A stretch of 64,000 nucleotides of DNA from Clostridia bacterium (GTDB taxonomy: Bacteria; Bacillota; Clostridia; Oscillospirales; CAG-272). Made by a program: the position numbers and the translations under genes. Every line of letters begins with the position of its first letter. The stretch's first letter is position 1. Positions 2,899 to 18,403 of the stretch are shown in pieces. The notes below the pieces were generated by a model, which ran no database searches, was not told where the DNA came from, and saw only the letters and a list, made by a program, of their open reading frames with translations. The stretch is taken from positions 36,782 to 100,781 of the forward strand of contig JAFQUJ010000017.1 in assembly GCA_017408585.1 (NCBI GenBank). The letters are read 5' to 3'.

Positions 2899-2924
2899 TG
2901 TTATTTTCCTGTTTTGTTTATTGT

Positions 2925-5900
2925 TTATTTGTTACGCCAATAATACTGGTCGTAACTAGATGTTAAATATTTCGCTGCAGTTGATGCATCTGACAAATAA
3001 TTCAACGAGTAGCTTGGCGAGAAGCCAGACCAGGTTGAGTATTCCCATCCGGATGCATCTTCAAATATTACGCTTTTAAGTGCTGTACAGTATGAGAACG
3101 CATATATTTCGATAGTCTTTACACTAGCCGGAATAGTTATGCTTTCTAGCGCAGAACAGCTAGAGAACGCATTACCTTCTATTGTTTCTAAGACGCTTGG
3201 AAGCGTTATACTCTTAAGCTTGCTGCAACCACTGAAGGCGTATCCTCCTATTTCGGTTACACCACTTGGAATTGTTATGCTTTCAAGCGATGAGCAATGA
3301 TAGAATGTTTGATATCCTATTTTTGTAAGACCACTTGGAAGAGTAACTGTTTTTAATCTGTAACAGCACCAAAATGTAGCGTTTCCCATTGAAATTACGC
3401 TATCTGGTATCAAAACCTCTTCGAGCGAATTACATTCAAGGAACACGCTTTTGCCCAGTTCAGTTACACTGTTTGGAATTTTCACTGTTTTGAGATATTT
3501 AGAATATGCAAACGCCTCGTCTGCAATTATAGCCACGCTGTTTGGTATTTCGAAAGTTGTATCCTGTTTACCAATAGCATATAAAACAAGTGTCTTTCCG
3601 TCCTTGGAATAAAGAGAGCCATCAACTGACTTGTAATTTGCGTTGTCTTTACTTACCACAATGTTTTCAATTGCGGTACACTCCAAAAATGCTTGCTCTC
3701 CTATCTTGGTTAGTCCCTTTCCAATCGTTATGCTCTTAATTGCGTTATTGCCATAGAATGCATATGGCTTTATTTCTGTAATAGCATCCGGTATTACCAG
3801 CTCTGTTATAGTAGCACCGTTTATGTTCAAGCTATGTGAATAATTTTGAGGATTTGACCACTCGTCAAAGAAAGATATATTACACCATTGCTCTAATGTT
3901 CCAAGATAATTTACGATTTCAAGGCGGTTACAATTTATAAATTGTTGTTCTCCTATTTCGGTTACACTAGATGGAATTGTTATGCTTGTAATTCCTGCGC
4001 AATTACTAAATACGCAATCTCCTATTTTGGTTACGCCGTTTGGAATAACAACGCTTGTTATTGAATCGCAATTATTGAAAATATAGTCTTTTATTTCAGT
4101 AATGGAGTTAGGTATCACAAGGTCTGTCAAAAGAACGCCCTTTATACTAAATGTTTCAGCATAATATGTTGGAGTGGAATATTCATTACTAAATGAAATA
4201 TTACACCATTTCTCTAGCGTTCCAAGATAATTGACTGTCGAAATGCTATAGCAGTAATCAAAGGCATCGTTTCCAACTTGGGATACACCATTTCCAATTG
4301 TCACGCTTTCAAGAGACTCACAAGAACGAAAAGCACTATCGCCTATTGTTGTCACACTATCAGGAATTGTTATGCTTGTAAGAGAGTCACAGTCGTAGAA
4401 CGCTGACGAATAGATAAATTTTGTATTCTCATGTATTTTACAAGAGGTAATATTTTCGTCCGTCACATTTAGCAATAGCAAATAAGGATTGGTATCGTTT
4501 CCTAAATATAATGCATTATCATATGCATTGCATTTCATAGCAACGCTATCTGGTAATATGTATTCTCCCATCTCGGTAATGCTACTTGGAATTGTTATTG
4601 TTTCAAGGAGATCGCAGTCATAGAATGCATAGTTTCCTATTTTGGTCACTCCGTCGGAAATTGTTGCGCTTATAAGCGAGGTGCAATCTGAGAACGCATA
4701 TGCACCTATTATTTTCACATTACCCGGAACAACTATGCTTGCAAGTGCAGTACAGTTTTGGAATGCCGATTTTCCAATTGTCGTAACACCATCAGGAATT
4801 GTTATGCTTGTAAGTGCTGTGCAATTATAAAATGCGCTATTGTTAATATACTTTGTATCTTCATGTATTTGACAAGAGGCAATCTTCTTGTCATTTGCGT
4901 TCATGAGCCAAAGGAACGGATTATCTGCGTTTCCAAGATAACTTGCTGTATCATACACATTATATTTAAGTGCGGTACAGTTAGAGAACGCATAATCAGC
5001 TATTGATGTTACGCTATTGGGGATTGTTACATTCTCAAGAGATGTGGCATTTGCAATCGCATATGTTCCTATTGCTGTCACACCTGATGGAATTGTTATC
5101 TTTGTTATGTCGTCCTGATAATAAAATGCATATTTATATATTTCGTAATCTTTACCATTATAGCTATCGGGCAAGGTTATTTCCGTTATGTTGCCCTTGT
5201 ACGCCATGAGATAAATTTTATTATCTCTTGTCCAAAATACATAGTCGTTTATTGTTTTTAATACGCTTTGTTCACTTGATGAGGTGTGTATTATCAAGTC
5301 AGAATCACTTGCTGACGAAATGTCAAGTGAGGTTAAATTGTAAATCTCCACTAACTTATTACAGTTGTTAAACGCATAATCTTCTATTGTAATAACATTA
5401 GACGGAATTGTTACGCTTAAAAGAGAATTACAGTTAGAAAATGCACTATTTCCTATTGTAGTCACACTAGATGGAATTGTTATCTGCGTAAGAGAGCTAC
5501 AATTGGAAAACGCATTAGCGCCTATTGTAATTACGCCTTCTGGAATGCTTATACTTTCAAGTGCGGTACAACTACTAAATACAGCTTTTTCTATTATTGT
5601 AATCTGGCTTGGGATATTTACACTTTTAAGCGAATGGCACGCACTAAATGCGCATTCTCCTATCTCTTTTACATTAGCGCCAAGAGATATCCTTTCAATT
5701 TCCGAGCAATTGCCAAACGCGCCATATGCAAGAGTTCCACCATTAACAGTAACGCTCTTTAATGTGTTTGGAATGAAATAATTATGATAATCTCTCCATT
5801 GATTTGAATAATGTTGTTCCGTTTTTTTTGCTCCGTCAAACTCGTTTGAACCAAAAATATGGCCAAAATTATTTGAATAATAGGAACTAGAGAAATCTTT

Positions 5901-7577
5901 ATTTGAGCCAACAAATGGGATTGTCAAGCTTTCGAGACTTGAGCACCCCTCTAATATCCCATCTGGTATCGTAGTTAATCCGTTTCCAATAACGAGTTCT
6001 TTTAGTGATGTGCAATATTTAAAGGCTTCTCTGCCCACTGAGGTTACACTATCTGGTATAGTTAAGCTTACAAGTGAGGAGCACCTAACAAACGCGCCAT
6101 TGCCTATCTGCGTTACTTTGCTTGGAATTGTTATGCTTTTAAGAACAGAACAGCCTTGAAATGCACCATTCTCTATTCTTGTTAAGCTTTCAGGAAGCGT
6201 TATGCTTTCAAGAGCAGAACAGCCTTGGAAGGCGGAGTTTCCAATTGCAGTTACGCTATCAGACATGGTTACACTTGTAAGCGCAGTACAGCCATGAAAT
6301 GCCCTTCCTCCTATTGAGGTCACGCTATTTATTGTTACGCTCTTAAGCAATGTGCAATTTTCAAATGCATAGCTTGGTATTTCCTCTCCACCAATTATTG
6401 ATACAGTTTCTACTGTATTAAACGAAAAATTATCAAGCACTCCTGCATAACAAGTAAGATTTTTTATGTTATTACAACCATTAAACGCCGAATATCCAAC
6501 TGACGCATTTCCCTTAATTGTCAAGTTCGTGAGCGAGGTACATCCTTCAAACATTCCACTTGATATAGAGGTTATACCGCTTCCAATCACAACCGTTTCA
6601 AGCGCGGTACAGCCGCTAAATGTGTCGCTTTGTATTGATTCAATGGTGTCAGCAATAATCAAGCTTTTAAGAGATGTATAATCTCGGAAATCTGCATACA
6701 TCTGACCTTTTCCACCATTTATGAAAAGTGTTTCTATTGTTTTTGGCAGATTACCAACACTAGAAGCCGGAGCCTCAACATCCTTAAGCGATGTACAATT
6801 TCTAAAATTGCAGCTGCCGGTTGCTGTGGCAGGAATAACAAGCTTTGTCATGCTTTTAACATTATCGCCGGAGAAGGCCTCGTAACTTATTTGGTAAGCT
6901 TCTCCTTCGTATTTCTCGGGCAAAATTACAATTTCGGCATCTCCCTTGTATTCAATAAGAACGCAACCTCTGTCGCCCTTAATAAAAACAAAATCGTCCT
7001 TGCTTGAAACTGATGGCTTTGCTGAAAGGAACAAAATTCCAACCAATATAGTAACCGCAGTAACTATAATGGCAAGTGCGGAAAATTTCACTCCGTTTTT
7101 AACATTTGTTCTACTATAATAAATTTCTTTTTTATATAGGCTAACGATAAGTATGATTGCCAAAATCACACTAGCAAACATACCAAAAATCCATATTGAC
7201 TCAAAATCAATGGAGCTTACATAATAATAGTTTCTTGAAAAAATATTAATTCCTGTAAAGACCACCAGCACAATTGGTAGCAAAAACGCAATGGTTTTGA
7301 GCATTTTGAAAAGCTTATATCTTGATCTTGCCTTTGCCTCAATGTCTGCCTCCTCGCTTCTTAGACGAGCACCTTCGGCGCTTTGAACCTTGCTCAGCGC
7401 GCTATTAAATTCGCTTCTCTCCTGAGAGAGTCGATTATAGTATCGGTCGCGCTTGCTTGAATAAGTGCGCGATGCGTCGATTTCGGTGTCGCTCTCGTAT
7501 GGGGGTGGTGTCGAGCCATCGAGCATTTGTATGTATTTTCTGTCGGCGTGTTGCCTTGTCGTTTTTTTGAAATCCAT
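2925..7577 (-). CDS. BspA/TpLRR-type leucine-rich repeat membrane protein, 1550 aa
   Basis: Dozens of 'LxSITIPxSVTxIGxxAFxxC' repeats (LRR_5); ~90-aa charged N-terminus followed by about three hydrophobic helices. Confidence 0.93.
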   Translation of the reverse strand: MDFKKTTRQHADRKYIQMLDGSTPPPYESDTEIDASRTYSSKRDRYYNRLSQERSEFNSALSKVQSAEGARLRSEEADIEAKARSRYKLFKMLKTIAFLLPIVLVVFTGINIFSRNYYYVSSIDFESIWIFGMFASVILAIILIVSLYKKEIYYSRTNVKNGVKFSALAIIVTAVTILVGILFLSAKPSVSSKDDFVFIKGDRGCVLIEYKGDAEIVILPEKYEGEAYQISYEAFSGDNVKSMTKLVIPATATGSCNFRNCTSLKDVEAPASSVGNLPKTIETLFINGGKGQMYADFRDYTSLKSLIIADTIESIQSDTFSGCTALETVVIGSGITSISSGMFEGCTSLTNLTIKGNASVGYSAFNGCNNIKNLTCYAGVLDNFSFNTVETVSIIGGEEIPSYAFENCTLLKSVTINSVTSIGGRAFHGCTALTSVTMSDSVTAIGNSAFQGCSALESITLPESLTRIENGAFQGCSVLKSITIPSKVTQIGNGAFVRCSSLVSLTIPDSVTSVGREAFKYCTSLKELVIGNGLTTIPDGILEGCSSLESLTIPFVGSNKDFSSSYYSNNFGHIFGSNEFDGAKKTEQHYSNQWRDYHNYFIPNTLKSVTVNGGTLAYGAFGNCSEIERISLGANVKEIGECAFSACHSLKSVNIPSQITIIEKAVFSSCTALESISIPEGVITIGANAFSNCSSLTQITIPSSVTTIGNSAFSNCNSLLSVTIPSNVITIEDYAFNNCNKLVEIYNLTSLDISSASDSDLIIHTSSSEQSVLKTINDYVFWTRDNKIYLMAYKGNITEITLPDSYNGKDYEIYKYAFYYQDDITKITIPSGVTAIGTYAIANATSLENVTIPNSVTSIADYAFSNCTALKYNVYDTASYLGNADNPFLWLMNANDKKIASCQIHEDTKYINNSAFYNCTALTSITIPDGVTTIGKSAFQNCTALASIVVPGNVKIIGAYAFSDCTSLISATISDGVTKIGNYAFYDCDLLETITIPSSITEMGEYILPDSVAMKCNAYDNALYLGNDTNPYLLLLNVTDENITSCKIHENTKFIYSSAFYDCDSLTSITIPDSVTTIGDSAFRSCESLESVTIGNGVSQVGNDAFDYCYSISTVNYLGTLEKWCNISFSNEYSTPTYYAETFSIKGVLLTDLVIPNSITEIKDYIFNNCDSITSVVIPNGVTKIGDCVFSNCAGITSITIPSSVTEIGEQQFINCNRLEIVNYLGTLEQWCNISFFDEWSNPQNYSHSLNINGATITELVIPDAITEIKPYAFYGNNAIKSITIGKGLTKIGEQAFLECTAIENIVVSKDNANYKSVDGSLYSKDGKTLVLYAIGKQDTTFEIPNSVAIIADEAFAYSKYLKTVKIPNSVTELGKSVFLECNSLEEVLIPDSVISMGNATFWCCYRLKTVTLPSGLTKIGYQTFYHCSSLESITIPSGVTEIGGYAFSGCSKLKSITLPSVLETIEGNAFSSCSALESITIPASVKTIEIYAFSYCTALKSVIFEDASGWEYSTWSGFSPSYSLNYLSDASTAAKYLTSSYDQYYWRNK

Positions 7578-7590
7578 TTCTCGCTCCTAC

Positions 7591-7884
7591 TTAATATACA
7601 TTTCTCTTTTTATAGATTTGCGCTTCGTATTCGGGCAATCTTGAAAGTCTTTCGTCGATTGATGCTTGATTTTCGTCAACACAGCCCTTAACTGATGCGT
7701 TAAATCGGTCTATTACCGATACAAATGCTTGAATTGCGCCATGAATGCTTTGGTCAAGGTTACCAATATTAGCATTTAGCTCCGAGGAGCACTTAATGGT
7801 GAGAGCCTCGACCTTGGCTTTGAACTGTTCTATTGCCGATCGAGCGCTTAAAAGCGCGTTATCTGTAACACTTATTTTATCCAT
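7591..7884 (-). CDS. Small helical WXG100/ESAT-6-like protein, 97 aa
   Basis: Size, two amphipathic helices around a central 'NLDQ' turn, and operon context. Confidence 0.55.
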   Translation of the reverse strand: MDKISVTDNALLSARSAIEQFKAKVEALTIKCSSELNANIGNLDQSIHGAIQAFVSVIDRFNASVKGCVDENQASIDERLSRLPEYEAQIYKKRNVY

Positions 7885-7888
7885 TACC

Positions 7889-8389
7889 CTAATCCTGCTC
7901 CTTTAATTCCTTGTATGCCCATTTGAAGAAATGGTGGCTATATTTATGATATAGCTTTCTTATTTTTCTATCGAACAAAACATCATAGATTGTCACTAGC
8001 TTTTTTAGAATACTCCTTTGCTCCTCACCCTTTATGTCGGTGAAAACAAATTCTCTTACTTTCATATAAAGCTCTGTAAAATCGCCGATGCTTGTTTCTC
8101 TGTCATAATTAAGCTCCCACTTTGAGTCTGCGTCTGTTGCCGAGATTGGCTCTACAAACTCGCCGAGGTCGAGCGTATCTATTTTCTGCTGATAAATTTC
8201 AGTCGGTGGCTCGATTTTTTCGATTGATCCGTTTCCCTCGTTTCTTGTCATTTTGCAAACGAGAAATTTATCAACTATGCTTCCGTTATTATCATATCCT
8301 AGTATTGGATAAAGCAGGCTTGATGGAAAGCTTCTGTCGTTTTCAAAAAACGATTTCATTGCCCTGCTTATAATTTCGCGATATTCCAT
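7889..8389 (-). CDS. Hypothetical protein, candidate immunity protein for the upstream effector, 166 aa
   Basis: Starts 6 bp after the effector stop; no signal peptide; role inferred from position only. Confidence 0.5.
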   Translation of the reverse strand: MEYREIISRAMKSFFENDRSFPSSLLYPILGYDNNGSIVDKFLVCKMTRNEGNGSIEKIEPPTEIYQQKIDTLDLGEFVEPISATDADSKWELNYDRETSIGDFTELYMKVREFVFTDIKGEEQRSILKKLVTIYDVLFDRKIRKLYHKYSHHFFKWAYKELKEQD

Positions 8390-8395
8390 TTTTAC

Positions 8396-9529
8396 CTACC
8401 TTATTATCGTTTTTGTTATGTTCATCTCTGCGCCTGTTGGAGCAAGTGCAAATCTCATTACCTCGACGGGAACGAGCCTTGCGCTTGATTCTCCCCTGTC
8501 ACCCGAGTCGCAAACATAAACGCCTGTTATTTCGTTTGTATGGGCATCTCTTTGAATGCTTGTTATAGTGATTGCGTGAAATGCGGGTACAGAGCCATGG
8601 CTTTGATACCATAGCATATTCGCGTCAACAGTAGCGATTACTCCTCGTCCCTGCTCAACATATTCTGCGATTTTCTCAACTGAGCCATATTCTATGTCCG
8701 ACTCAATTCCAAAATGTCTTAAAACCGCTTGTCTATCCTTGGCGTATGTACCACCATTATTTTCAGGTGAGCTATCAATTGTGCACATTGGACGAATTCC
8801 CTTAAATCCAATGATTTTATGCGTTCTTGCGTAATTAACCACCTTTTCCTCGGTGATGTTAACGCCTGCCATACGGAGTATGTTTTCGACGCTTACAAGT
8901 CCGCATGTTCCCTCAAAGCCCTCGACGCCCTCTCCACCACGGCTTACAGGAACGCCTTGGTTTGAGTTTAGCTTTTCACCGGTTTGCTTAGGGGTATTGA
9001 AGGTTTTTACATATCCGTCTCTTTGCCATGTCTGTCTTGTTCTATTTAGCTTTGTAGGGCGTATTCCGTCTGAGATAAATTCGCCCTTTTCAAGCCGATC
9101 TGCCGATTGTGTCGCGCTCGGTGCGCTTGTGCTTGGAGCTGTACTTGTTCTTTTCGGCGGTGTGCTTGCTGATGTTGCACCGCTATTTGCGCTAGCAGTC
9201 ACAGGTGACGATGCGGAATAGGTCGATGCCACAGGAGAAGATGATGCTATACCGATACCCGTTGTACGATCGACAATTTCAAGCGCCTTATCACGAAAAT
9301 ATCGTGGATATGTAGCGCTGATTTCCTCGATAATGGTGTGAATTCTGGTTCTTAGAACCTCAATTTCTCTCATTAAATTGCCAAATGTGTGGTCATCGTC
9401 CCACTCACCTTGCAAATTCACCATGTCTCTACAATAATCATCAAGTATTTGATTTTGACTTTCGCAGTATGCTTCTATTGAATCTGCAACCTCGCCTAGC
9501 ACATCGGGGTCTAATATAAGCTCATCCAT
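8396..9529 (-). CDS. WXG100-like N-terminus + S/T/A/P linker + C39-like (papain-fold) peptidase; candidate secreted effector
   Basis: N-terminus (MDELILDPDVL...GEWDDDHTFG) is paralogous to 10567-10851; putative catalytic residues in GTCGLVS, FHAITIT and VCDSG. Confidence 0.75.
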   Translation of the reverse strand: MDELILDPDVLGEVADSIEAYCESQNQILDDYCRDMVNLQGEWDDDHTFGNLMREIEVLRTRIHTIIEEISATYPRYFRDKALEIVDRTTGIGIASSSPVASTYSASSPVTASANSGATSASTPPKRTSTAPSTSAPSATQSADRLEKGEFISDGIRPTKLNRTRQTWQRDGYVKTFNTPKQTGEKLNSNQGVPVSRGGEGVEGFEGTCGLVSVENILRMAGVNITEEKVVNYARTHKIIGFKGIRPMCTIDSSPENNGGTYAKDRQAVLRHFGIESDIEYGSVEKIAEYVEQGRGVIATVDANMLWYQSHGSVPAFHAITITSIQRDAHTNEITGVYVCDSGDRGESSARLVPVEVMRFALAPTGAEMNITKTIIR

Positions 9530-9598
9530 AGTTTCTCCTAATGATTTATAGCATTGTGGGCAAGCGCCCTTCTCTTACTACTTAGAGTAATGCTTTGT

Positions 9599-10294
9599 TT
9601 ATTTCTTTAATTTTGCAGAGAAATCCTCGCTTTGAAGTCTTGATGGGAAAAATATTGGCTTACTTGCGAGATATTCATTTATTTTTGCGATTAATGCATT
9701 TAATTCCATCGCATTGTACTCAGCCTCCTCTTGCATAAGGCCTAAGTACTTTTTCATTTCATACATACATTCCTGTATTGTGTCAAGTGCGCTTGCTACC
9801 GCGTCCTCCATCTCCTTAAAATAGGTGACGGTTGCTGAGGCGTCGTTTGCGAGGCTACGCGCAAGCTCATACTTTTTTCTATAATGATTGTAGTTATTAG
9901 TCGCCTCTTCTAATCTTCGACGAGCAGCGCTAAGCGCATATTCGTCCACATCAGGCACTGTTTTTGTAGTTGAGTTTCCATCTGAATCGGTAACTGTCAC
10001 CGTTTTGGTTCTGCTAAGAATATAGTCTATTTCTCTTTCGATGCTTTGCATTTCTGCGTAATATTCCTGCATTTGATATTCATATGTTGTCGCCTTTGAG
10101 GACGCCTCGTCATATATTATCTCGGCACGATTGATTTGAATTCTTATCTTTTGCAGATCCGACTCAACATCAAAATACAAGCGCTGAGCCTTGAAAATCA
10201 GCTGATCTGCGATGCTCATGATTACATCGTATGTGTCATCAGTGTGGCTAGCAAATCTTTCAAGCGCTGATAGCTCTGTTTTTATACTTGCCAT
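9599..10294 (-). CDS. Long helical-hairpin/coiled-coil protein, 231 aa (LXG/ESX-partner-like)
   Basis: ORF track 9599-10348; ATG at 10294 has a GGAG RBS and follows the upstream stop; heptad-rich with a central beta-hairpin-like 'TVTVTDSDGNSTTKTV'. Confidence 0.7.
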   Translation of the reverse strand: MASIKTELSALERFASHTDDTYDVIMSIADQLIFKAQRLYFDVESDLQKIRIQINRAEIIYDEASSKATTYEYQMQEYYAEMQSIEREIDYILSRTKTVTVTDSDGNSTTKTVPDVDEYALSAARRRLEEATNNYNHYRKKYELARSLANDASATVTYFKEMEDAVASALDTIQECMYEMKKYLGLMQEEAEYNAMELNALIAKINEYLASKPIFFPSRLQSEDFSAKLKK

Positions 10295-10295
10295 A

Positions 10296-10550
10296 TCACA
10301 ACTCCGCCAATCTTGCGCTGAGCTTGTCGAGCATTTGATCAAACTCACTTTCGCTATAATTTTCCTTTACCAGCTCGTGCATTTCAACCGCAACAAGATT
10401 TTGTTGCCATGTATTAAACGAAAAACGCTCGAAGTTTTCGTGTATAGCCTCGTAGGAGGGAGCGGTTTGGTCCTTCCAAATCGCTCTTAACTCACTTACG
10501 CTATCCTTTAAGTTGAAAATTGACTGGGTAAACTCTCCGTAATTATCCAT
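10296..10550 (-). CDS. WXG100-like protein, 84 aa (W-K-D motif)
   Basis: Helical, 'AIWKDQTA' turn, tight operon packing. Confidence 0.6.
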   Translation of the reverse strand: MDNYGEFTQSIFNLKDSVSELRAIWKDQTAPSYEAIHENFERFSFNTWQQNLVAVEMHELVKENYSESEFDQMLDKLSARLAEL

Positions 10551-10566
10551 ATCTTATCTCTTTAAC

Positions 10567-10851
10567 TTATCCTATATCCTCTGGTCTTGACTCGATTAGT
10601 CTTGCCTTTTCTCTAAAGAATCTTGGGTATTCTCTCTTTATATCGTTCATTATTGATTCAATTCTGCTTTTGAGAGTCCTTACCTCCTCAAGAAGAGGGC
10701 CTATTGTCTGGTCGTCGTCCCACTCACTTTGCAAAGCGCCCATTTTTGAAAGATAATCTGCCATTACCTGTGTTTGAGTTTCGCAATAAAATCCAATATC
10801 GTCCGCAGTTTCATATAGCACTCTCGGGTCCAGCTCTAATATATCGTCCAT
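10567..10851 (-). CDS. WXG100-like protein, 94 aa (W-D-D motif)
   Basis: Central 'SEWDDDQ' at residue ~44; strong AGGAGG RBS. Confidence 0.7.
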   Translation of the reverse strand: MDDILELDPRVLYETADDIGFYCETQTQVMADYLSKMGALQSEWDDDQTIGPLLEEVRTLKSRIESIMNDIKREYPRFFREKARLIESRPEDIG

Positions 10852-10866
10852 ATTATCCCCCTCCTA

Positions 10867-11133
10867 TCAAGTGTTTCTATAATCGTTTATCCATTGGATT
10901 ATTCTTCGACAATAGGTTTCTATTTGCTCCATTTTGTCGCTAACTGTTCTGAGCATGATTTGCATTTCCTCGGATAATTCGAGATACTTTTTTATGGTTG
11001 GATCTTGAAGTCCGGCAAATTTAGCATTAACATCGGAATCAAGAACTCTCATGTTCATTGAAAGATCCTCGGCTGCCTCGTTTGAAAGCTTAATAGCCTC
11101 GTTAGCTGCTCTTTCAGAAATCTTAAATTTCAT
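10867..11133 (-). CDS. WXG100-like protein, 88 aa (L-Q-D turn)
   Basis: Helix-turn-helix pattern with 'GLQDP' at the midpoint; AAGGAG RBS. Confidence 0.6.
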   Translation of the reverse strand: MKFKISERAANEAIKLSNEAAEDLSMNMRVLDSDVNAKFAGLQDPTIKKYLELSEEMQIMLRTVSDKMEQIETYCRRIIQWINDYRNT

Positions 11134-11161
11134 AAAATTCTCCTTGGTGCTCTAAGAGCGT

Positions 11162-11238
11162 TTTATATTTTTATACCGCGTAAGCGTTTGATTTGATCTA
11201 GCTTTTCATTTACTCTGTGTAGGATTTGAGATGCTCCC
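11162..11238 (+). repeat. 77-bp exact direct repeat, copy 1 (copy 2 at 12117-12193)
   Basis: tttatatttttataccgcgtaagcgtttgatttgatctagcttttcatttactctgtgtaggatttgagatgctccc at both positions. Confidence 0.95.
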
Positions 11239-12094
11239 ACCTTTTTATTATTGATTTAATAATCTCTAAGCGTTCATTGTAATCTGCAAAGCCTATTTGA
11301 AGGTAAATGCCATTTCTGCCATAACGAATATCATTAAATAGCGATATTCCTGTTGGAGCATTTTTAAGCTCTTCTGCCCTTTGCAGATCAACATAAAAAC
11401 TCGTTAGCACACTTAAATCAGGGAGAGGAAGGTAGATTTTGCTTCCACATTGGCTAAGCACGGTGGTTCTTGTTATTGGATATTTTATAATGATACTACT
11501 GCTCAACGACATAACCACATTTATTCCAAATCGTCTTCCACACTTAAGTAAGAACTGCAGGCGATCAATTATACAGCTTCTTGTATTTTCATTTTCAAGA
11601 ACAAGATCAACCTCATCAATAACAATAAGAATTCTTGACTTTGCGACATATTGAGAGAGGGTTAGTCCCTGTTCTTTGCATTCCTGACCTCGACGCATAA
11701 TCTCCTCTTCAAGTTCGCAAAGAGCAGACTTGGTCGCGTCCATACCGCGAGCTACAAGTTTAATATGGGGCAAGTGCAGATTTTCATAGCACTCAAATTC
11801 CACGCTTCCCTTAGGATCTAAAAGGTAAACATTTAATTCATTGGGGCTGTATTTATAACATGCACTCATGATAAGAGTGTGAATAAAGTTGCTTTTTCCA
11901 CTTTTTTCTCCACCGAGCACCATCGCGTTCATTTGATTTTCTATCAGATCCAAGGAATGTACTCCCTCGTTTGACATACCAATTGGAATTCTTAATCCCT
12001 CCGACGCTGATATGCTTTCGGTATGCGTATCAATATGTGACAAAAGCGTTTCAACACATACGATATGAGATGCATCAGAACTTGTAAAATCCAT
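11210..12094 (-). CDS. Single-domain FtsK/SpoIIIE-family ATPase, divergent paralogue of the central domain of 12399-15980
   Basis: Walker A GGEKSGKS, Walker B IVIDE; shares 'IMSACYKYSP.ELN.YLLD.K' and 'NDIRYG' with the large ATPase. Confidence 0.8.
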   Translation of the reverse strand: MDFTSSDASHIVCVETLLSHIDTHTESISASEGLRIPIGMSNEGVHSLDLIENQMNAMVLGGEKSGKSNFIHTLIMSACYKYSPNELNVYLLDPKGSVEFECYENLHLPHIKLVARGMDATKSALCELEEEIMRRGQECKEQGLTLSQYVAKSRILIVIDEVDLVLENENTRSCIIDRLQFLLKCGRRFGINVVMSLSSSIIIKYPITRTTVLSQCGSKIYLPLPDLSVLTSFYVDLQRAEELKNAPTGISLFNDIRYGRNGIYLQIGFADYNERLEIIKSIIKRWEHLKSYTE

Positions 12095-12116
12095 ACCTTT
12101 TCTTTCCTATTCTTTA

Positions 12117-12193
12117 TTTATATTTTTATACCGCGTAAGCGTTTGATTTGATCTAGCTTTTCATTTACTCTGTGTAGGATTTGAGATGCTCCC
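12117..12193 (+). repeat. 77-bp exact direct repeat, copy 2 (the 3' end of the 92-aa gene)
   Basis: Identical to 11162-11238. Confidence 0.95.
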
Positions 12194-12396
12194 TGCTCAA
12201 TGGTATCTATATCTGCCATAAAAGAGCTTATGGCAGATAATAGATTTTCATAGTCCTCGTCATCCCAATCTCCGTTGTTTGATTGGATTCGTTTTAGCGT
12301 CTCATCGAGCGCTTCCTTTATTCCCTGAGTATATGTGCTAATGCTTAACGATGTAATCTCTAAGGCTTGCTCGTCAATGATTACGGTTTCACTCAT
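12118..12396 (-). CDS. WXG100-like protein, 92 aa (W-D-D motif)
   Basis: 'GDWDDEDY' at residue ~44; starts 2 bp after the FtsK stop. Confidence 0.7.
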   Translation of the reverse strand: MSETVIIDEQALEITSLSISTYTQGIKEALDETLKRIQSNNGDWDDEDYENLLSAISSFMADIDTIEQGASQILHRVNEKLDQIKRLRGIKI

Positions 12397-12398
12397 TA

Positions 12399-15300
12399 TT
12401 AGCCTCCAAGCTTTCTGTAGGTTTCACATAGCTTCTTATACCACTCGCTATCCACATCTGCATTATAACGATAGATTCTAATCTTGGTGGTTTCGTCAGC
12501 GTTTGCAACAATTGCAACCTTTGGATTGTTAAGTCCACTTGTTACCTTAAGATTGCTCATGAGGTGTGATACAGAGCTTGAATCAACACCCTTTGTCAAA
12601 ATCTTATATGTCATACTGCTACCAAGCTCATTTCTGATTGCAGAAATGGTTGAGGTATTGTTGATAGAAATGATAAAGTGAATTCCATACTGTCCACCCT
12701 TTTCAAGCAAGTCCTTAAATGCGGTAGCGAAAGAAATTCTATCGGGCATTTTTGAAGAGCTTGGTGTAGCGACAGATGAAGGTGCAGAGTTTCTGTTTTT
12801 GAACTTGCTACGAGCAGCGTCAGCAGAGCTTCCACCACTTGTTGTAGCCGGTTCCTCTTGTACCTCTGTTTCCTCGCTGAGAATAAGAGTTGGGTTTTCG
12901 TTAAAGAGGTCTGCGTATCTTTGGATAGAGTGAATAACGACATATCTTGGTGAGTTGTCGCTGATTTCTCCACCGAGAACATCACGCTCGTTATCTCTTT
13001 CCTTATAAAGCTTAAAGAGAGTCTTTATGCAGTTCTTGAGTGCCTCGGTCGAGGATACGGTTTCAACAACATTAGGAAAGTCGTCGCGTATTACATTGAA
13101 GAGGTCGCTCTTGTTCTCGGAGTTTATCATTTCTCCGTTTGCACAGTAAATCTTAGCTCCCTTTTGAGCGCAATCGGCATCAGTTAGTCTATTCGCTACA
13201 AGTGAAAGAAGTGAGAAACCCATCATATCTCTGATAACCTCAATATCGATACCTGCCAAAAGCATATTCATCTTTTCGCCGTCATTTCTCATATCGATAT
13301 TAAATGGCTTTCCTGTTACATAGTCTTGACCTAGCTGTAGTCTGTAGCTCTTCTTCTCTTGCTCGAGCTGTGGAGCAACAGTATAAATAGTTGTTCCCTC
13401 AACAGGTGATGGATCTTCGTTTCCACCGACAATAAACATAGGCTCTTGAGGTATGCTATCTGTAACCTTCTTCCATTTCTTAGTAATTTCTGTGGAGAAG
13501 CTTACACGCTCCTCTACGCTATATGCATAAGCGACACGGAACTCTACGCTATTGTTACCATAACGAATATCGTTGATAACACCAAGACCCTTTTCCGGTC
13601 TGTTAAGGTTTTTAACTGCTTTTGGATCGATTTTGATTTCCAACGCCTCATCCGGCTCGTTAAGACGCAAGCTGATTCTGTTTCCAATATGGTTGAGGAC
13701 CTCCTCGCGAAGTCTTGGGAACTTTGGAACATTTTGTGATGCCCAGAGAATGTTGATACCAAATGCACGGCCCTCTCTGAATAGGAAGCCAAGAGATTTG
13801 ATTGCCTCTGCGCCCGCCTGCTCGTCTGCGAAAAGAACCTGAATTTCGTCGATGATAACAAGAATTCTTGGCATCTTATAGCCCTTAGCAACATATTGAA
13901 CGATATCGGAAACTCCACACTCCTTGAACAGATTTCCTCTGCGCTCCTTCTCAATCATAAGGTTCTTGAAGATAGCAAGAGCGGAGTTGATGTCCTCGCG
14001 AAGATCAACACCCAAAAGCTTGATGTGAGGTAGGCGATGATTTTCGTAATACTTAAATTCTACGCCCTCCTTCAAGTCGAGAAGGTAAATGTTGAGCTCC
14101 TCGGGGCTATACTTATAGCAGGCACTCATAATGATAGCATGGAGAAGGTTAGATTTACCTGAACCGGTACCACCGATTGCAACTGCGTGAGCAGAGCCGT
14201 CGCCTGCGGTTTTAAGGACAAGGCTTTGTACCTCTGCACCTCTTTTACCAATAGGAATGTCGAGAACCTCTGCAGTTGGAGCGATACCCTTGGGGCTCTT
14301 AAGTCGAGCGTTGGTGTCGTCGAACATTTCTTCAAGATAAATTGGCTTACTTGCGATTTCTTGTGCGTGATCCTTCATCATTTCGATAATTGAATCAAGC
14401 TGTGAAACGCTAATGTCGCGCTTTGGCTCAAAGTAGTTGCTTACTCCAAGAGAAAGCTCAAATCTATTGCCTATTTTATTAATCACAAGAGCGCTCTTTG
14501 ATGCGGATTCAACAAAGCGCTGATGCTCAGCAGGCTTATACATAGAGCCTAGGGAGCAAGCCTTGTTGTTTATAATAATGCTAAATACGCCCGTCTTGTT
14601 TCCGGCTTGCATAAGTCTAAGGAGCTTCTTTGAGGTTTCATCTCTTAAGCCTGATGGATAGTTAGCAAGAACAAATAGATAAACATTTTGAGGGTTAGCC
14701 TGGAATTTTGAGTTGTACTCGTAAATATCCGAAACGCTATTGTAACTTAGAACCTCGTCATTAATTTTGTTCATTCTCTGCTCCATATCCTTGATGGTGT
14801 CCTCAAGCTGACGGTCATCACGAATAATTCCGCTGAGCAAAATTCCGTTACTTATTTTAGTTAGCTTTGCAAAATGTGAAAATTCCATTACATTATCAAT
14901 ATCCACTAGACAGAAATTAATTCTGTTTGCAGGGAATGACAAAAGGAATTGAATTATAAGCTGATTTACGAAATTTATCGTTTTCTCGGAGTAGTTTTCC
15001 TCGTCGATATTAAGCATGATATTTCCACACTTTTTAAGGTCGAGAACAAGAGGTGCGCTCAGGTGTCCCATCTCTAGATATCTGTCAAGAATTGGGCTAT
15101 CAGCAATATAGCCAAGATGCTTTAGGTTATCCTCAACAAGAAGCTTAATATCACCGATATTGATGCTTTGATTATAGGTATCCGTTCCTGCTACAATATC
15201 AACATCAGATTTCTTTCCGTCCTCTTCAAGCTCTACAAAAAACTTCTTTGGAATTGCCTCTACGCTTTCATCAACAAATAGCTCGTCAAAGCGCTTGGAA

Positions 15301-15980
15301 TATGTTGCGCGAAGCTTTGATTCAAACTCGGCAAGCCATGCGTTTGCGCTTCCTCCAACAAAGGAATTAAAGCCTGCGATATTGAATTTCTTATCGTAAA
15401 GCGCAATCAATGCGTCAATGCAAGCAATTGCCTTTTTACAGCAAGGGAAAATTTCGGATACGATGTTGGCAATTGGGCGTGGGTCATTAATTTGCTTCCT
15501 TTGTTTTGCGCCTGTGTCATATTTGGTTACATTTTGATGGTTACCTGTGTAGGTGATAAAGGTTTCTCCATCAACCTCAACCTTGATAGGTGGAACCAGC
15601 GCATCAAAGTCAACTGAATTTAGCTTTGCTATGCAATCGTTTATCTTGTCAAGAAGCTCGTGAAGAATCCTTTCGTTTTCCTCGTAGCTCTTGCGAGAAT
15701 ATTCCTTTGTGTCAACGCTTGTGCGATTCCACTCGTCCTTATAGTCTTTGCATAGAAGCTCGACTAAGTCGTTTATATCTTCTTGAATGCTGATAAAGTG
15801 CGTCGCCTTAAACTCCTCGTACTTTTGCTTCATTTCAGCTATCATTTCAGCTGACGCTCTCTCGATTGATCTCTTTTCGTTTGAGTATTGATTTGTCAAT
15901 CTCGCTTCAAGATTATCAATTTCAATACAATGGGAGTTGATTTTTCTAATCACTTCCATAATTTTGGTAATTTCTATCAT
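12399..15980 (-). CDS. FtsK/SpoIIIE-family (EccC/EssC-like) multi-domain ATPase, 1193 aa
   Basis: Coiled-coil N-terminus; degenerate first ATPase-like domain; intact central domain (GGTGSGKS, LVIIDEIQ, GRAFGI); degenerate third domain; no obvious transmembrane helix. Confidence 0.85.
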   Translation of the reverse strand: MIEITKIMEVIRKINSHCIEIDNLEARLTNQYSNEKRSIERASAEMIAEMKQKYEEFKATHFISIQEDINDLVELLCKDYKDEWNRTSVDTKEYSRKSYEENERILHELLDKINDCIAKLNSVDFDALVPPIKVEVDGETFITYTGNHQNVTKYDTGAKQRKQINDPRPIANIVSEIFPCCKKAIACIDALIALYDKKFNIAGFNSFVGGSANAWLAEFESKLRATYSKRFDELFVDESVEAIPKKFFVELEEDGKKSDVDIVAGTDTYNQSINIGDIKLLVEDNLKHLGYIADSPILDRYLEMGHLSAPLVLDLKKCGNIMLNIDEENYSEKTINFVNQLIIQFLLSFPANRINFCLVDIDNVMEFSHFAKLTKISNGILLSGIIRDDRQLEDTIKDMEQRMNKINDEVLSYNSVSDIYEYNSKFQANPQNVYLFVLANYPSGLRDETSKKLLRLMQAGNKTGVFSIIINNKACSLGSMYKPAEHQRFVESASKSALVINKIGNRFELSLGVSNYFEPKRDISVSQLDSIIEMMKDHAQEIASKPIYLEEMFDDTNARLKSPKGIAPTAEVLDIPIGKRGAEVQSLVLKTAGDGSAHAVAIGGTGSGKSNLLHAIIMSACYKYSPEELNIYLLDLKEGVEFKYYENHRLPHIKLLGVDLREDINSALAIFKNLMIEKERRGNLFKECGVSDIVQYVAKGYKMPRILVIIDEIQVLFADEQAGAEAIKSLGFLFREGRAFGINILWASQNVPKFPRLREEVLNHIGNRISLRLNEPDEALEIKIDPKAVKNLNRPEKGLGVINDIRYGNNSVEFRVAYAYSVEERVSFSTEITKKWKKVTDSIPQEPMFIVGGNEDPSPVEGTTIYTVAPQLEQEKKSYRLQLGQDYVTGKPFNIDMRNDGEKMNMLLAGIDIEVIRDMMGFSLLSLVANRLTDADCAQKGAKIYCANGEMINSENKSDLFNVIRDDFPNVVETVSSTEALKNCIKTLFKLYKERDNERDVLGGEISDNSPRYVVIHSIQRYADLFNENPTLILSEETEVQEEPATTSGGSSADAARSKFKNRNSAPSSVATPSSSKMPDRISFATAFKDLLEKGGQYGIHFIISINNTSTISAIRNELGSSMTYKILTKGVDSSSVSHLMSNLKVTSGLNNPKVAIVANADETTKIRIYRYNADVDSEWYKKLCETYRKLGG

Positions 15981-16025
15981 AATTAATCTCCTATTTCAAT
16001 GTTTTGTTTTTGTTAAATTTTTAAG

Positions 16026-16376
16026 CTAAGCGATTTTTCTCTCGCTCTCAAAAAAGAACAGTAATCTAACCACTCTTTCCTTGCGTCGTCTTAGCGCCTC
16101 GCTCATCTCATAGGCGTAACGCATATTTCCTTCTGCGATGGTGGCAAGCGTGTTGCGTAGCCCTTGTTGCTTGCGCTTGTAGGCGCGTAGCCTCTTAACA
16201 TATTCCTTAGTCGAGGAAATGCTATCCGGCTCTCTCTTATAAGGAGAGGGCGCATCGCCTAGGTACATATCAAAATATGTCTTATCGACAGTATCTAATA
16301 CGCTATTTTTGAAGCACTCGCCAAAACAGCTAATAGGTGGCGAGGTGGCTCTGTATTGTCCTGTTGTGTTTTTCAT
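16026..16376 (-). CDS. Hypothetical basic protein, 116 aa, first gene of the ESX-like operon
   Basis: ATG with AAGGA RBS downstream of a consensus promoter. Confidence 0.55.
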   Translation of the reverse strand: MKNTTGQYRATSPPISCFGECFKNSVLDTVDKTYFDMYLGDAPSPYKREPDSISSTKEYVKRLRAYKRKQQGLRNTLATIAEGNMRYAYEMSEALRRRKERVVRLLFFFESERKIA

Positions 16377-16446
16377 ATATCTTCCTTTATGTAATCCTTT
16401 AAGTTTTGTTTATATTCACTTTGCTTTCACAAAAAGCTCAATATAT

Positions 16447-16476
16447 ATTATACTATAATAAATATATAATTGTCAA
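16447..16476 (-). promoter_or_regulatory. Sigma-A promoter of the ESX-like operon
   Basis: TTGACA (16476-16471), 18 bp, TATAAT (16452-16447) on the minus strand. Confidence 0.7.
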
Positions 16477-16616
16477 TATGCACAATAAACAAAGCCCCCC
16501 CCCCCATTTTTTGTGCATTTTATACAAAAACTCCAAAATTTTGATACTTTCAACAAATTTATTCTTGTCGATTTTTAAAATTATTTAGAATGTGCAAAAA
16601 ATGGTACATATATCAT

Positions 16617-16645
16617 TTGACAGGGCACTTAATATATGGTACAAT
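16617..16645 (+). promoter_or_regulatory. Sigma-A promoter of the MBL-WYL unit
   Basis: TTGACA, 17 bp ending in TG-N, TACAAT. Confidence 0.75.
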
Positions 16646-16663
16646 TATTACGAGGTGATTAAG

Positions 16664-17260
16664 ATGATTAAATGCTTTTATGGTGGCGTTCTAGACTCAA
16701 ACGCCTATCTTTTATATGATGGTGGCGAGGCGATGCTAATTGACTGTGGAGTTGCCCCTCAAAAAATTTGCGAATTTTTGCGTGAAAGCTCCCTTAAATT
16801 AAAGTACATTATCCTAACTCATGGGCATTTTGACCATGTGGAATATTCCGAGGAATACGAAAAGCTTTTCCCTGATGCTATGGTGCTTTGCCATAAGGAC
16901 GAAATTCCCGTTTTACGCGACCCTGTGGCTAATGTTACTGCTCTTTTCTCGGCTGGGCGCACATACGAGCTTAGCGCCCACGCCCTAGAGGGTGGCGAGA
17001 GGCTATTTATCGGCAACACAGAGGTGGAAATCATACACACCCCCGGACATTCTGTCGGTGGAATATGTATTTTTTGTCCTAAGGAGAATGCTATTTTTGT
17101 GGGTGATACTCTATTTCGTAACGGATATGGCAGAACTGATTTTAAGGGTGGGAGCATGACGCTTCTTCGCGCCTCGCTCAAATTATTGTTCTCGCTTGAT
17201 GGTAGCATAGAGGTTTACTCGGGACATGGTCCTAAAACGACAATAGGTCAGGAGAGTTAA
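16664..17260 (+). CDS. MBL-fold metallo-hydrolase (glyoxalase II/YcbL-like)
   Basis: THGHFDH, HTPGHS, GDTLF and GHG motifs; ATG 16664 with GAGGTG RBS. Confidence 0.9.
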   Translation: MIKCFYGGVLDSNAYLLYDGGEAMLIDCGVAPQKICEFLRESSLKLKYIILTHGHFDHVEYSEEYEKLFPDAMVLCHKDEIPVLRDPVANVTALFSAGRTYELSAHALEGGERLFIGNTEVEIIHTPGHSVGGICIFCPKENAIFVGDTLFRNGYGRTDFKGGSMTLLRASLKLLFSLDGSIEVYSGHGPKTTIGQES

Positions 17261-17261
17261 A

Positions 17262-18260
17262 ATGGATTCACTTGAAAAAAAGAAGCTTGCGCTCCTTAGA
17301 ATTTTACAGATTTTATGGCGTGACAGTGACGAAAATCACCCTCTTATGCAAGAGGATATTATACGAATTCTCGACACAGAGTACGGTGTTTTAGTTGACA
17401 GACGCACAATTGGACGCAATATTGCGCTCTTAAAGGATGCGGGATTTGAGATTGAGTCCACAAGGCGTGGCTCTTATCTTGTACAGAGAGTCTTTGAGGA
17501 TAGCGAGCTACGACTTTTGATTGATAGCGTGCTTGCCAGCGCACACATAAGCCCAAGTCACTCTAAGGCTATAATTGAAAAGCTATGCTCTCTTTCGTGC
17601 AAGCATTTCAAAAGGCATGTAAAAAACATCTATTCAGTAAATGACTGGGGAAAAAGCGACAGCCCTCTTTTGTTTTTCAATATTGAAATAATTGACGAGG
17701 CAATTGAGCGTGGCCTTATGCTTTCCTTTGATTATAATAAGTATTCCTCGGATAAGCGCCTACATAAGTCGGCATCTCACATCGTAAGCCCTTACCAGAT
17801 GCTCCTTCACAATCAGCACTATTATCTTATGGCGCTAAACGAAAAATGGGGAAACATTACCTTTTATAGAATGGATAGAATTATGAACATCGCTCTTACC
17901 ACCAAACCACTAACTCCCTTGCGCTCGGTAAAGGGATACGAGGGTGGAATTGATTATAAAAAAATTGCGTGCTCTCTTCCCTATATGTTCACCGACGAGC
18001 CAAGGCGAATAACCTTTGTCGCAAAGGAGTGGGCAATTGATCAAATCGTCGATTGGTTTGGGCGTGATATTACGATTACTCCCGAGGGCGAGGACCTTCG
18101 CGTTAGTGTTTTGGCAAGCCCTAACGCTATGCTCTATTGGTGCTTGCAGTATTCGGGCGCAGTTGAGGTAATAGAGCCACAGGATCTAAGAGAAAGGGTA
18201 AAAAATGCACTACGAGAGGCACTCGAAAAATACGAAAAACAGCCCTCTCCAAATAGATAA
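17262..18260 (+). CDS. WYL-domain transcriptional regulator (wHTH-WYL-WCX)
   Basis: N-terminal HTH (VDRRTIGRNIALL); WYL core 'VSPY...YYLMA...FYRMDRI'; C-terminal 'VEVIEPQDLRERV'. Confidence 0.9.
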   Translation: MDSLEKKKLALLRILQILWRDSDENHPLMQEDIIRILDTEYGVLVDRRTIGRNIALLKDAGFEIESTRRGSYLVQRVFEDSELRLLIDSVLASAHISPSHSKAIIEKLCSLSCKHFKRHVKNIYSVNDWGKSDSPLLFFNIEIIDEAIERGLMLSFDYNKYSSDKRLHKSASHIVSPYQMLLHNQHYYLMALNEKWGNITFYRMDRIMNIALTTKPLTPLRSVKGYEGGIDYKKIACSLPYMFTDEPRRITFVAKEWAIDQIVDWFGRDITITPEGEDLRVSVLASPNAMLYWCLQYSGAVEVIEPQDLRERVKNALREALEKYEKQPSPNR

Positions 18261-18263
18261 AAG

Positions 18264-18371
18264 TGTCCCAAATTTTGGGACATTTTCTATCCTTATCTAT
18301 GTTACAATGCTATATGTAGTAATTGGCTTCAGACTTGTGTGCCAAATTTGGCTCATTATATATGAGATAAT
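18264..18371 (+). promoter_or_regulatory. Tandem promoters with palindromic operators upstream of the helicase operon
   Basis: TGTCCCA-AATTT-TGGGACA (18264-18282) then TGtTACAAT (18300-18308); TGTGCCAAATTTGGCTCA (18338-18355), 10 nt, GATAAT (18366-18371). Confidence 0.6.
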
Positions 18372-18403
18372 ATTGGCACTTAGTAAGGGAAAGGATGATT
18401 TGA

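Follow-up and report, generated by a model that had tools for sequence, protein, structure and literature searches.

Type VII secretion systems (T7SS, also ESX) of the T7SSa class use the ATPase EccC, in which two N-terminal transmembrane (TM) helices are combined with four ATPase-like domains (DUF, D1-D3) and whose partners are EccB, EccD and EccE. How substrates pass across the membrane in the T7SS of Bacillota is still unsettled. Garrett, Higginson and Palmer 2024 (PMC11217815) define the classes T7SSa-j, and in their main text every ATPase with a stated location is membrane-bound and most variants have a YukD-like protein, TsxB. Zhang et al. 2012 (PMC3482391, table footnote 6) note ATPases with three FtsK domains, of which the middle one alone is active, in other phyla (Gram-negative lineages), and the loci are labelled there 'mobile versions of T7SS'. 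Here we describe a locus in a Clostridia bacterium (GCA_017408585.1, contig JAFQUJ010000017.1, forward-strand positions 36,782-100,781; this whole stretch of 64,000 nt is called the window, and all coordinates are positions within it), in which a minus-strand operon encodes an FtsK-family ATPase without TM helices, small helical proteins with a W-x-D turn, a polymorphic toxin and membrane proteins that share a short N-terminal segment, which we call the head. We favour, with moderate confidence, the reading that this is a previously undescribed T7SS variant of uncultured gut Clostridia, which would export polymorphic antibacterial toxins and in which the ATPase and its membrane anchor are split into separate proteins.

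We found that the ATPase (1193 aa; 12399-15980, on the minus strand like every operon gene below) is EccC/EssC-like in comparisons with Pfam, PDB and NCBIfam and in AlphaFold2 (AF2) and Foldseek analyses. It contains a single Walker A motif (residues 603-610, K609 being within it) and a Walker B motif whose D711/E712 pair is invariant in 39 family members, and its one Pfam FtsK_SpoIIIE match (7e-34) covers residues 595-779. The AF2 model, built from 39 sequences (mean model confidence, pLDDT, 82.8), displays three alpha/beta domains at 272-545, 572-842 and 878-1193, of which the first and the last are degenerate FtsK domains and the middle one is active. They are preceded by a coiled-coil N-domain (1-~260) with long helices at 4-86, 99-121 and 171-236 and a small sheet at 132-154. 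The top Foldseek match of this model is the three-ATPase structure of Thermomonospora curvata EccC (4nh0, E 1.3e-27, 1021 columns), followed by EccC D2-D3, EssC (3e-19), FtsK (1e-12) and TcpA (2e-10). Sequence comparisons are in accord, with PDB matches to EccC 4nh0 (2.1e-26), EccC5 (4.1e-23) and FtsK (7e-6), and with NCBIfam scores of 105 bits for EssC, 97 for EccCa, 80 for EccCb and 26 for FtsK, all of which are far under the equivalog cut-offs (for EssC, 105 against 778 bits). EccC of T7SSa (4nh0, 4n1a, 7np7) is the best match in both sequence and structure, with the tandem ATPase domains aligning over ~1000 columns and one catalytically dominant domain lying between degenerate ones; a coiled-coil N-domain stands here in place of the TM segment of EccC.

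The highest 19-residue hydropathy window of the ATPase is 1.52, and its open frame extends at most five codons further upstream (1198 against 1193 codons). None of 76 relatives displays a credible TM helix by hydropathy, the sole stretch flagged among them being a buried segment of a degenerate ATPase domain near residue 341. From these sequence and structure matches, the ATPase is therefore an EccC/EssC-type motor in which the middle domain alone is active and a coiled coil replaces the TM helices. An earlier first-pass annotation, made from the letters alone, had described a 1193-aa FtsK ATPase with an intact middle domain and no evident TM helix within a non-canonical, ESX/T7SS-like locus. 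Both descriptions hold, and the ATPase groups with EccC/EssC and not with FtsK/TcpA. A second, stand-alone protein with a single FtsK domain, A294 (11210-12094; Pfam FtsK_SpoIIIE 4.2e-20), has intact Walker A and B motifs and 42% identity to residues 569-839 of the ATPase, and among the loci surveyed it is present solely here and in the closest locus, L028.

A candidate for the membrane anchor lies at the 3' end of the operon. Across the family, the gene that follows the last small gene (s97, described below) opens with the head, continues with TM helices and ends with a locus-specific part. The head spans ~70 residues with the pattern M-x-F ... K-Y-x-x-M-L-x-G ... Y-x-x-x-R-x-x-Y-x-x-R-L-x-x-E ... 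N-x-A-L, and its profile matches 18 of 24 family loci. In the window the operon continues past position 7591 with two such genes. LRR1550 (2925-7577) begins 13 nt after s97 and consists of a head (1-~71), three TM helices (95-113, 127-146 and 166-186, by hydropathy) and a BspA-type leucine-rich repeat (LRR) ectodomain (LRR_5, 2.8e-248). A second head-3TM-LRR paralogue begins 26 nt later (1-2898, with its 3' end beyond the window; head hidden Markov model (HMM) E 1.1e-36, TM helices at 88, 122 and 161), and the two heads are 92% identical. Because the N-terminal tail of LRR1550 has 20 lysine plus arginine residues, as against 1 in loop one and 5 in loop two, its head is predicted to lie inside the cell and its LRR domain outside. 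The first-pass annotation ended before these genes and reported no recognisable membrane channel genes. That statement has to be revised, with the head-TM family standing just beyond the part it covered, recurring in 18 of 24 loci and being predicted to bind the N-domain of the ATPase.

Searching 1.84 billion representative proteins with the head yielded 155 matches at E <=0.001 (clusters at 50% identity), and among the 150 matches listed nearly all begin within the first few residues of the protein. At least one hydropathy-predicted TM helix is found in 122 of 123 head proteins of at least 180 aa, with a range of 1-5 and three being the commonest number (55 of 123). Upon examining the 80 head proteins of at least 300 aa, we observe LRR_5 in 27, Hint in 3, RHS in 2, PEGA in 2, C-type lectin in 1 and laminin G in 1. 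The LRR region itself is repeat-rich, with many joints falling there in the metagenome contigs of other samples, and a terminator scan revealed an identical stretch in the tandem LRR paralogues (2865-2882 = 7544-7561).

To examine the link between motor and membrane protein, residues 1-270 of the ATPase and head residues 1-100 were folded together, with controls, on our own alignments. The predicted docking has an interface score (ipSAE) of 0.73 in three of three runs, compared with 0.00, 0.01 and 0.12 in the controls; the pLDDT of the partner is 88, and at least 97% of contacts are shared between the runs. Of solved complexes, 58 of 80 attain this ipSAE mark, as do 2 of 110 mismatched pairs; both counts are approximate here because our own alignments were used. 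We know of no similar complex and of no solved relatives of either family, and recall from a solved structure is therefore unlikely. Of the 18 N-domain residues conserved at >=90%, 10 lie in the interface (F62, D79, L106, N114, L120, N121, F125, P131, E139 and F141; Fisher p 0.0017), as do 16 of the 18 conserved head residues (p 2e-4), and invariant F125 of the ATPase contacts invariant Y46 of the head. The model thus supports binding of the head by the ATPase N-domain.

A further head copy is encoded between the promoter and the ATPase. This gene, g116 (16026-16376; 116 aa), aligns with the heads and contains no hydrophobic window, and a 121-aa counterpart, which is independent, occupies the same position in L028 (L028:9608-9973; head HMM E 6.7e-10). 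It could be a regulator, a decoy or competitor for the ATPase N-domain, or a remnant.

The small proteins form the next recurring part of the system. Family alignments were built from syntenic homologues, and each family has its own conserved turn motif. In s92 (12118-12396), always the first gene after the ATPase in the homologous loci, the turn is WDD and W44-x-D46-x-D48 is invariant. In s94 (10567-10851), a free-standing hairpin with the turn WDD (W-D-D-D), the family motif is W-x-D-D. In s84 (10296-10550; 84 aa, turn WKD), W25-x-D27 is invariant. In s88 (10867-11133; 88 aa, turn LQD), G-L-Q-D-P is conserved, with W-x-D-D appearing in distant members. Finally, s97 (7591-7884; turn LDQ) has an L-x-D motif and invariably closes the series of small genes, the membrane protein gene coming next. 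All five helical proteins and turns named by the first-pass annotation are accordingly present.

We compared these families by hhalign with a reference of 10 canonical PF06013 sequences, taken from the 5 of 81 sampled same-order genomes that had a match. The probability against canonical WXG100 is 97.2% for s94, 93.5% for s92, 81.7% for s97, 41.7% for s84 and 28% for s88, compared with 0.3% for an unrelated control, the head-domain profile. In s94, s92 and s84 the W is aligned on the W of W-x-G, with the G being replaced by D. The s94 profile also matches the streptococcal WXG100 proteins SAG1039 (5.4e-5) and GBS1074 (8.5e-5) and EsxA (0.0088) in the PDB; across the PDB profile searches S. aureus EsxA is found at 0.0088 and 0.018 and EsxB is matched as well, with designed helical bundles scoring alongside. 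The AF2 model of s92 is a hairpin (H9-39/H46-89, pLDDT 84) whose turn lies at W-x-D. For s84, the best ESM Atlas scores are 0.86-0.88, under the 0.9 lead level, and one of its clusters has 20% WXG100 members; s88 displays a weak PF04740 match (E 0.059), the only match to an LXG model. Judged from these profiles, s94 and s92 are members of the WXG100 superfamily and s97 probably is, whereas s84 and s88 are helical partners whose affinity to WXG100 is uncertain.

The toxin genes follow the same logic of helical N-terminal domains and exchangeable ends. The polymorphic toxin tox377 (8396-9529) comprises a W-D-D-D WXG-like domain (1-~95), a Ser/Thr/Pro/Ala linker and a papain-fold peptidase (~177-377), and its residues 1-93 are 49% identical to s94, of which they are a paralogue. 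The peptidase is assigned by Peptidase_C39_2 (2.1e-6, 28.8 bits against the Pfam cut-off of 24), and the catalytic residues Q191, C209, H318 and D341 are invariant in five of five homologues; phmmer against the PDB gave no match. Six nucleotides after tox377 begins imm166 (7889-8389), which has no TM helix, matches no family in Pfam, NCBIfam or PADLOC and is conserved together with the same toxin in L028 (44% identity). From this position it is a candidate cytoplasmic immunity protein. The toxin-like gene with a partner that had been noted at the outset is thus this pair. Neither protein, nor g116, has a match in PADLOC. In L042, L045 and L047 the arrangement is reversed, and an s94-like domain stands at the C-terminus of ~445-aa zinc-ribbon/TPR proteins, with a head-TM-LRR gene preceding.

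Another long helical protein, h231 (9599-10294), had been taken for a 231-aa helical hairpin. A helical protein is indeed present, but alignment with homologues identifies it as the LXG-like targeting domain of a toxin family that measures 374-560 aa in most relatives. The listed ORF, with a GTG start, has 249 aa and homologues align from its codon 19; BLAST homologues occur in 8 loci, 7 of them being 374-560 aa long, and an ADP-ribosyltransferase exoenzyme C-terminus is found in 5 family members, including profile-level relatives in L036 and L039. The copy in the window has no toxin part and is an orphan or truncated. The family resembles LXG in length, helical nature, position and toxin fusions; no PF04740 match in Pfam was found for h231 or the long toxins, and its alignment matched coiled-coil and viral fusion proteins only in the PDB. 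Among 20 toxin-like proteins scanned, tox377 included, ADPrib_exo_Tox occurs in 5 and Peptidase_C39_2 in 4. The same two N-domains, the W-D-D-D hairpin of ~95 aa and the LXG-like domain of ~230 aa, carry Peptidase_C39_2, ADPrib_exo_Tox or unnamed C-termini, with a small ORF after each. The locus therefore fits a polymorphic toxin system in the sense of Zhang et al. 2012, with the immunity role being putative and assigned from gene position.

When 185,579 species genomes (one per species) were scanned, we found 23 loci, which together with the window make 24 family loci; profiles were run over 2620 ORFs of these and of 3 distant loci, 27 in total. The 23 loci come nearly all from gut metagenome-assembled genomes labelled Clostridia, Eubacteriales, Christensenellales/-aceae, Lachnospiraceae or Bacillota. 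The gene order recurs as ATPase, s92, s88, s94, s84, an LXG-like toxin with a small gene, an s94-domain toxin with a small gene, s97 and the membrane protein. By profile, s92 is matched in 22 of the 27 loci, s88 in 21, s94 in 19, s97 and the LXG-like domain in 17 each and s84 in 14. The first-pass annotation had proposed that the locus would fall as a T7SS relative if its small proteins did not model as ESAT-6-like hairpins, or if the ATPase grouped with FtsK/TcpA proteins and its homologues had no small-gene neighbours. In the event, hhalign, the s92 model and its Foldseek list of Esx proteins point to such hairpins, and the neighbourhood survey revealed that the homologues of the ATPase, which groups elsewhere, keep their small-gene neighbours.

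Furthermore, a search with the N-terminal 570 residues of the ATPase returned 76 clusters at 90% identity (39-100% identical to the query, 951-1691 aa long), two of which carry names, 'DNA translocase FtsK' and 'AAA family ATPase'. The family thus numbers no fewer than 76 ATPase clusters (90% identity) and 155 head clusters (50% identity). The same segment gave no tblastn match in a plasmid collection; in phages it matched 23 records (22 of Bacillus), which are not family members because they share ~25% identity over residues 270-476 only. A search with the whole ATPase in 300 other same-order genomes found relatives better than 1e-20 in three (G213, G250 and G278), and in the other 149 matching genomes the P-loop domain alone is matched, mostly in ftsK-sized ORFs.

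Several loci are of separate interest. Those relatives in G278 (L025), G213 (L027) and G250 (L026) are distant, long EssC-like ATPases with 23-35% identity; the ATPase of L025 has no TM window, and those of L026 and L027 have one flagged window each. All three loci have small helical neighbours of their own and no head protein, and L027 has W-x-D small proteins. In L025 a C39-like toxin stands ahead of genes judged by eye to be kinase-like, vWA-like and PP2C-like, recalling T7SSc. L036, L037 and L039 lie in bins labelled Acholeplasmataceae, Prolixibacteraceae and Methanocorpusculum, which points to a mobile locus or to mis-binning; the proteins of L036 match those of L037 in length and in order, and the single protein that was compared is the same in both.

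Parts of the canonical T7SS were searched for in the window genome, which at 1.48 Mb is 69% complete. No model of WXG100 (best elsewhere E 0.11), YukC/EssB, YukD, EssA or EsaA reaches its cut-off in it; the best PF10140 match (E 0.033) is under the cut-off, and PF08817, PF10661 and TIGR03929 have no match. EccB, EccD, EccE and MycP gave no match in the general Pfam and NCBIfam scans of the operon proteins, in which no search was aimed at them. The earlier statement that EssA, EssB and EsaA are not recognisable is thus borne out across this incomplete genome, and extends to YukD and to WXG100 at the Pfam level. The genome has three FtsK-family genes, namely ftsK, the 1193-aa ATPase and A294, and in five of five other carrier genomes there are the housekeeping ftsK and the family ATPase only. 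Those five genomes contain no YukD and no above-cut-off WXG100, with sub-threshold Pfam WXG100 matches adjoining the ATPase in two of them. From these searches for FtsK, YukD and WXG100, the locus therefore seems not to be an add-on to a standard T7SS.

Compared with T7SSb, the locus shares a multi-domain FtsK-family ATPase, WXG100-fold hairpins, toxins with a helical N-domain accompanied by a small helical partner and by immunity genes, and a large-ectodomain membrane protein whose analogue in T7SSb is EsaA. It differs in that the ATPase has neither FHA domains nor TM helices and has three ATPase-like domains rather than four, in that no EssA, EssB, EsaA or YukD was found, in having W-x-D in place of W-x-G, and in a membrane partner from a new family with a cytoplasmic head. 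The T7SSc-T7SSj classes, as described in the main text of PMC11217815, share a non-canonical Bacillota arrangement in which the accessory genes vary, the substrates are of LXG/Rhs type and additional WXG100-like 'Lap' genes occur, and their TsdI/TseI are large repeat-domain envelope proteins; in contrast, the ATPase here is soluble and no YukD was found. The main text of that paper nowhere uses the words 'soluble', 'without transmembrane', 'Christensenell' or 'leucine-rich'. The ATPases of Zhang et al. 2012 (PMC3482391) have the same plan and adjoining WXG-like genes, a likeness drawn from their description only, in which no membrane partner is mentioned. Because of that description the ATPase plan is not new in kind. 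In the open full-text literature searched, supplements being outside its scope, we found no description of an EssC-like ATPase without TM helices and with a separate head-TM partner, and none of the W-x-D motif or of a toxin-bearing Clostridia system of this type.

The operon as a whole comprises 13 minus-strand genes located 3' of a putative sigma-70-type promoter (TTGACA-18-TATAAT, 16447-16476, minus strand), which was assigned by consensus match alone and agrees at 12 of 12 positions; successive intergenic gaps are 1-76 nt. Within 2500-17000 this promoter is the sole perfect match among 50 promoter-like sites, and since shuffled sequence yields a mean of 38.7 such sites, their count alone is uninformative. 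A single consensus promoter followed by closely spaced genes had been proposed before, and this agrees with what we find, whereas the description of the system as minimal does not. The gene set is larger, with A294, g116 and the two LRR membrane genes past 7591 having been absent from the first-pass annotation. From g116 to s97, no operon protein has a 19-residue Kyte-Doolittle window above 1.6. Near-identical copies of 7549-16501 occur in animal gut metagenome contigs from several other studies.

The chromosomal surroundings include PtsI, RmuC and an FtsH-like protease, with no relaxase, phage or transfer genes among the neighbours of the locus. A divergent, plus-strand gene set at 16592-24301 adjoins the operon and is possibly a defence module. 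It encodes a metallo-beta-lactamase-fold protein, a WYL+WCX regulator, a 1168-aa SNF2/ResIII helicase with DrmD/BrxH-like domain matches in PADLOC, a MoxR-like AAA protein and a DUF2201 vWA-metallopeptidase protein. Apart from the WYL regulator, these proteins all have cluster partners among the ORFs upstream of the L028 ATPase.

Taken together, the following mechanism may be proposed. The N-domain of the soluble ATPase would clasp the head and so be recruited to the membrane, the membrane anchor of EccC/EssC having been split off as a separate, exchangeable protein. The W-x-D proteins may serve as EsxA-like co-substrates and Lap-like chaperones, which would pair with the helical domains of the toxins and present them to the ATPase, with export being driven by ATP hydrolysis in the single active domain. 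The ectodomain, an LRR domain here, could span the wall like EsaA or TsdI, or bind target cells. We infer export and the role of the head proteins as anchor rather than client.

Several observations weigh against the proposed secretion variant. Secretion, export and head binding are predicted from sequence and structure models, and TM helices were called throughout by a hydropathy threshold only. The test of interface conservation is tied to the alignments from which the fold was computed. No small protein has a PF06013 match at the Pfam gathering score, and the small proteins, the toxin N-domain and imm166 have no other Pfam or NCBIfam match above cut-off; the Foldseek list of s92 is dominated by EsxA/EsxB (TM-score 0.7-0.86), with E >=0.2 throughout, so that it serves as a ranking only. 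Because the window genome is 69% complete, components may be encoded elsewhere. Six loci gave no head match: in three of them the DNA downstream is shorter than 2 kb, but L044, L046 and L050 have ample flanking DNA and truly lack the head protein, L046 also being devoid of the small genes. We saw no protein in the locus that resembles a dedicated channel, and the head proteins vary in TM number (1-5) and in their whole C-terminal part, which fits adaptors or cargo better than a conserved pore. Finally, Sel1, BspA-LRR (LRR_5) or NACHT/STAND domains are fused to the N-terminus of some family ATPases without TM helices (P0004, P0006, P0034, P0042, P0055 and P0072) and stand-alone LRR or Sel1 genes without TM helices flank the ATPase in L036, L037, L039 and L040, a pattern commoner in intracellular sensing systems; and the P-loop domain of the ATPase also matches PADLOC SspH (80 bits) and mad8 (74 bits).

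These last points bear on the main alternative, an intracellular conflict or anti-phage system in which the soluble ATPase and repeat sensors release or activate toxins within the producer (abortive infection), the small genes being antitoxins and nothing being secreted. The lack of a TM helix in the ATPase, the N-terminal fusions of its relatives, the soluble LRR or Sel1 genes at some loci and the adjoining WYL regulator, SNF2 helicase and MoxR AAA and vWA pair are all in keeping with it, as are the PADLOC matches, to which a HerA model adds a further one on the P-loop domain. However, these matches cover the generic FtsK domain only and score under EssC (80 against 105 bits), and the three-domain ATPase matches EccC end to end. 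Moreover, the plan is that of T7SS substrate loci, with WXG100-like hairpins, LXG-like domains, swappable toxins including exoenzyme-type ADP-ribosyltransferases, and tandem toxin/immunity cassettes, and the partner predicted for the ATPase sits in the membrane and bears a large ectodomain. We regard the intracellular system as rather unlikely. It is about equally improbable, in our view, that the head proteins are cargo or clients instead of an anchor, with the head acting as a targeting signal, the system helping to insert or display surface proteins (LRR, RHS/Hint, lectin) and the channel lying elsewhere or being unrecognised. Tandem paralogues with near-identical heads (92% in the window) and different C-termini speak for it, as do the 2-4 head proteins per locus in 8 further loci (L028, L029, L031, L033, L039, L040, L045 and others), the varying TM number and a variety of C-terminal domains (27 LRR_5 among 80) that is the pattern of polymorphic effectors and adhesins. 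On the other hand, a protein with an odd number of TM helices and its head inside would need no more than ordinary Sec/YidC insertion, the head is not itself exported because it stays in the cytoplasm, and the fixed position as last gene in 18 of 24 loci fits a core component.

The two remaining explanations carry far less weight. The locus could be an island of substrates and an accessory ATPase feeding a canonical T7SS encoded elsewhere in the genome, for which the 69% completeness and the canonical WXG100 genes in 5 of 81 sampled same-order genomes leave some room. Yet neither the window genome nor any of the five other carriers has a second multi-domain FtsK ATPase, and EssB, EssA, EsaA and YukD were not found here, nor YukD or an above-cut-off WXG100 in the other five, and we consider such an island very improbable. 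Least credible of all is a DNA-translocating or conjugative FtsK/TcpA-type ATPase beside unrelated small genes. Pfam names FtsK_SpoIIIE only and the two named relatives are a 'DNA translocase FtsK' and an 'AAA family ATPase', but FtsK and TcpA score far below EccC/EssC, the three tandem domains without TM helices and the conserved small-gene synteny are against it, and there is no plasmid match and no relaxase, phage or transfer gene nearby.

Beyond the secretion variant that we favour, a more speculative extension may be considered, which we hold to be possible but doubtful. In this 'plug-in' type VII system the soluble motor would dock on any of a polymorphic set of surface proteins sharing the head, the ectodomain (LRR, RHS/Hint, lectin or PEGA) would pick the target or contact site and export would be coupled to it, with g116 competing as a brake. 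If this were true, it would constitute a contact-gated, receptor-exchangeable secretion machine in Gram-positive gut anaerobes.

Overall, the proposed T7SS variant provides context for two families that have no Pfam model, the W-x-D hairpins and the head domain. With the ATPase and its putative anchor being separate polypeptides that share a small, conserved predicted interface, docking, assembly and gating could be studied by mixing parts. Additionally, the locus points to a possible unrecognised route for antibacterial toxins, including papain-like peptidases and ADP-ribosyltransferases, in the abundant uncultured Clostridia of the gut.

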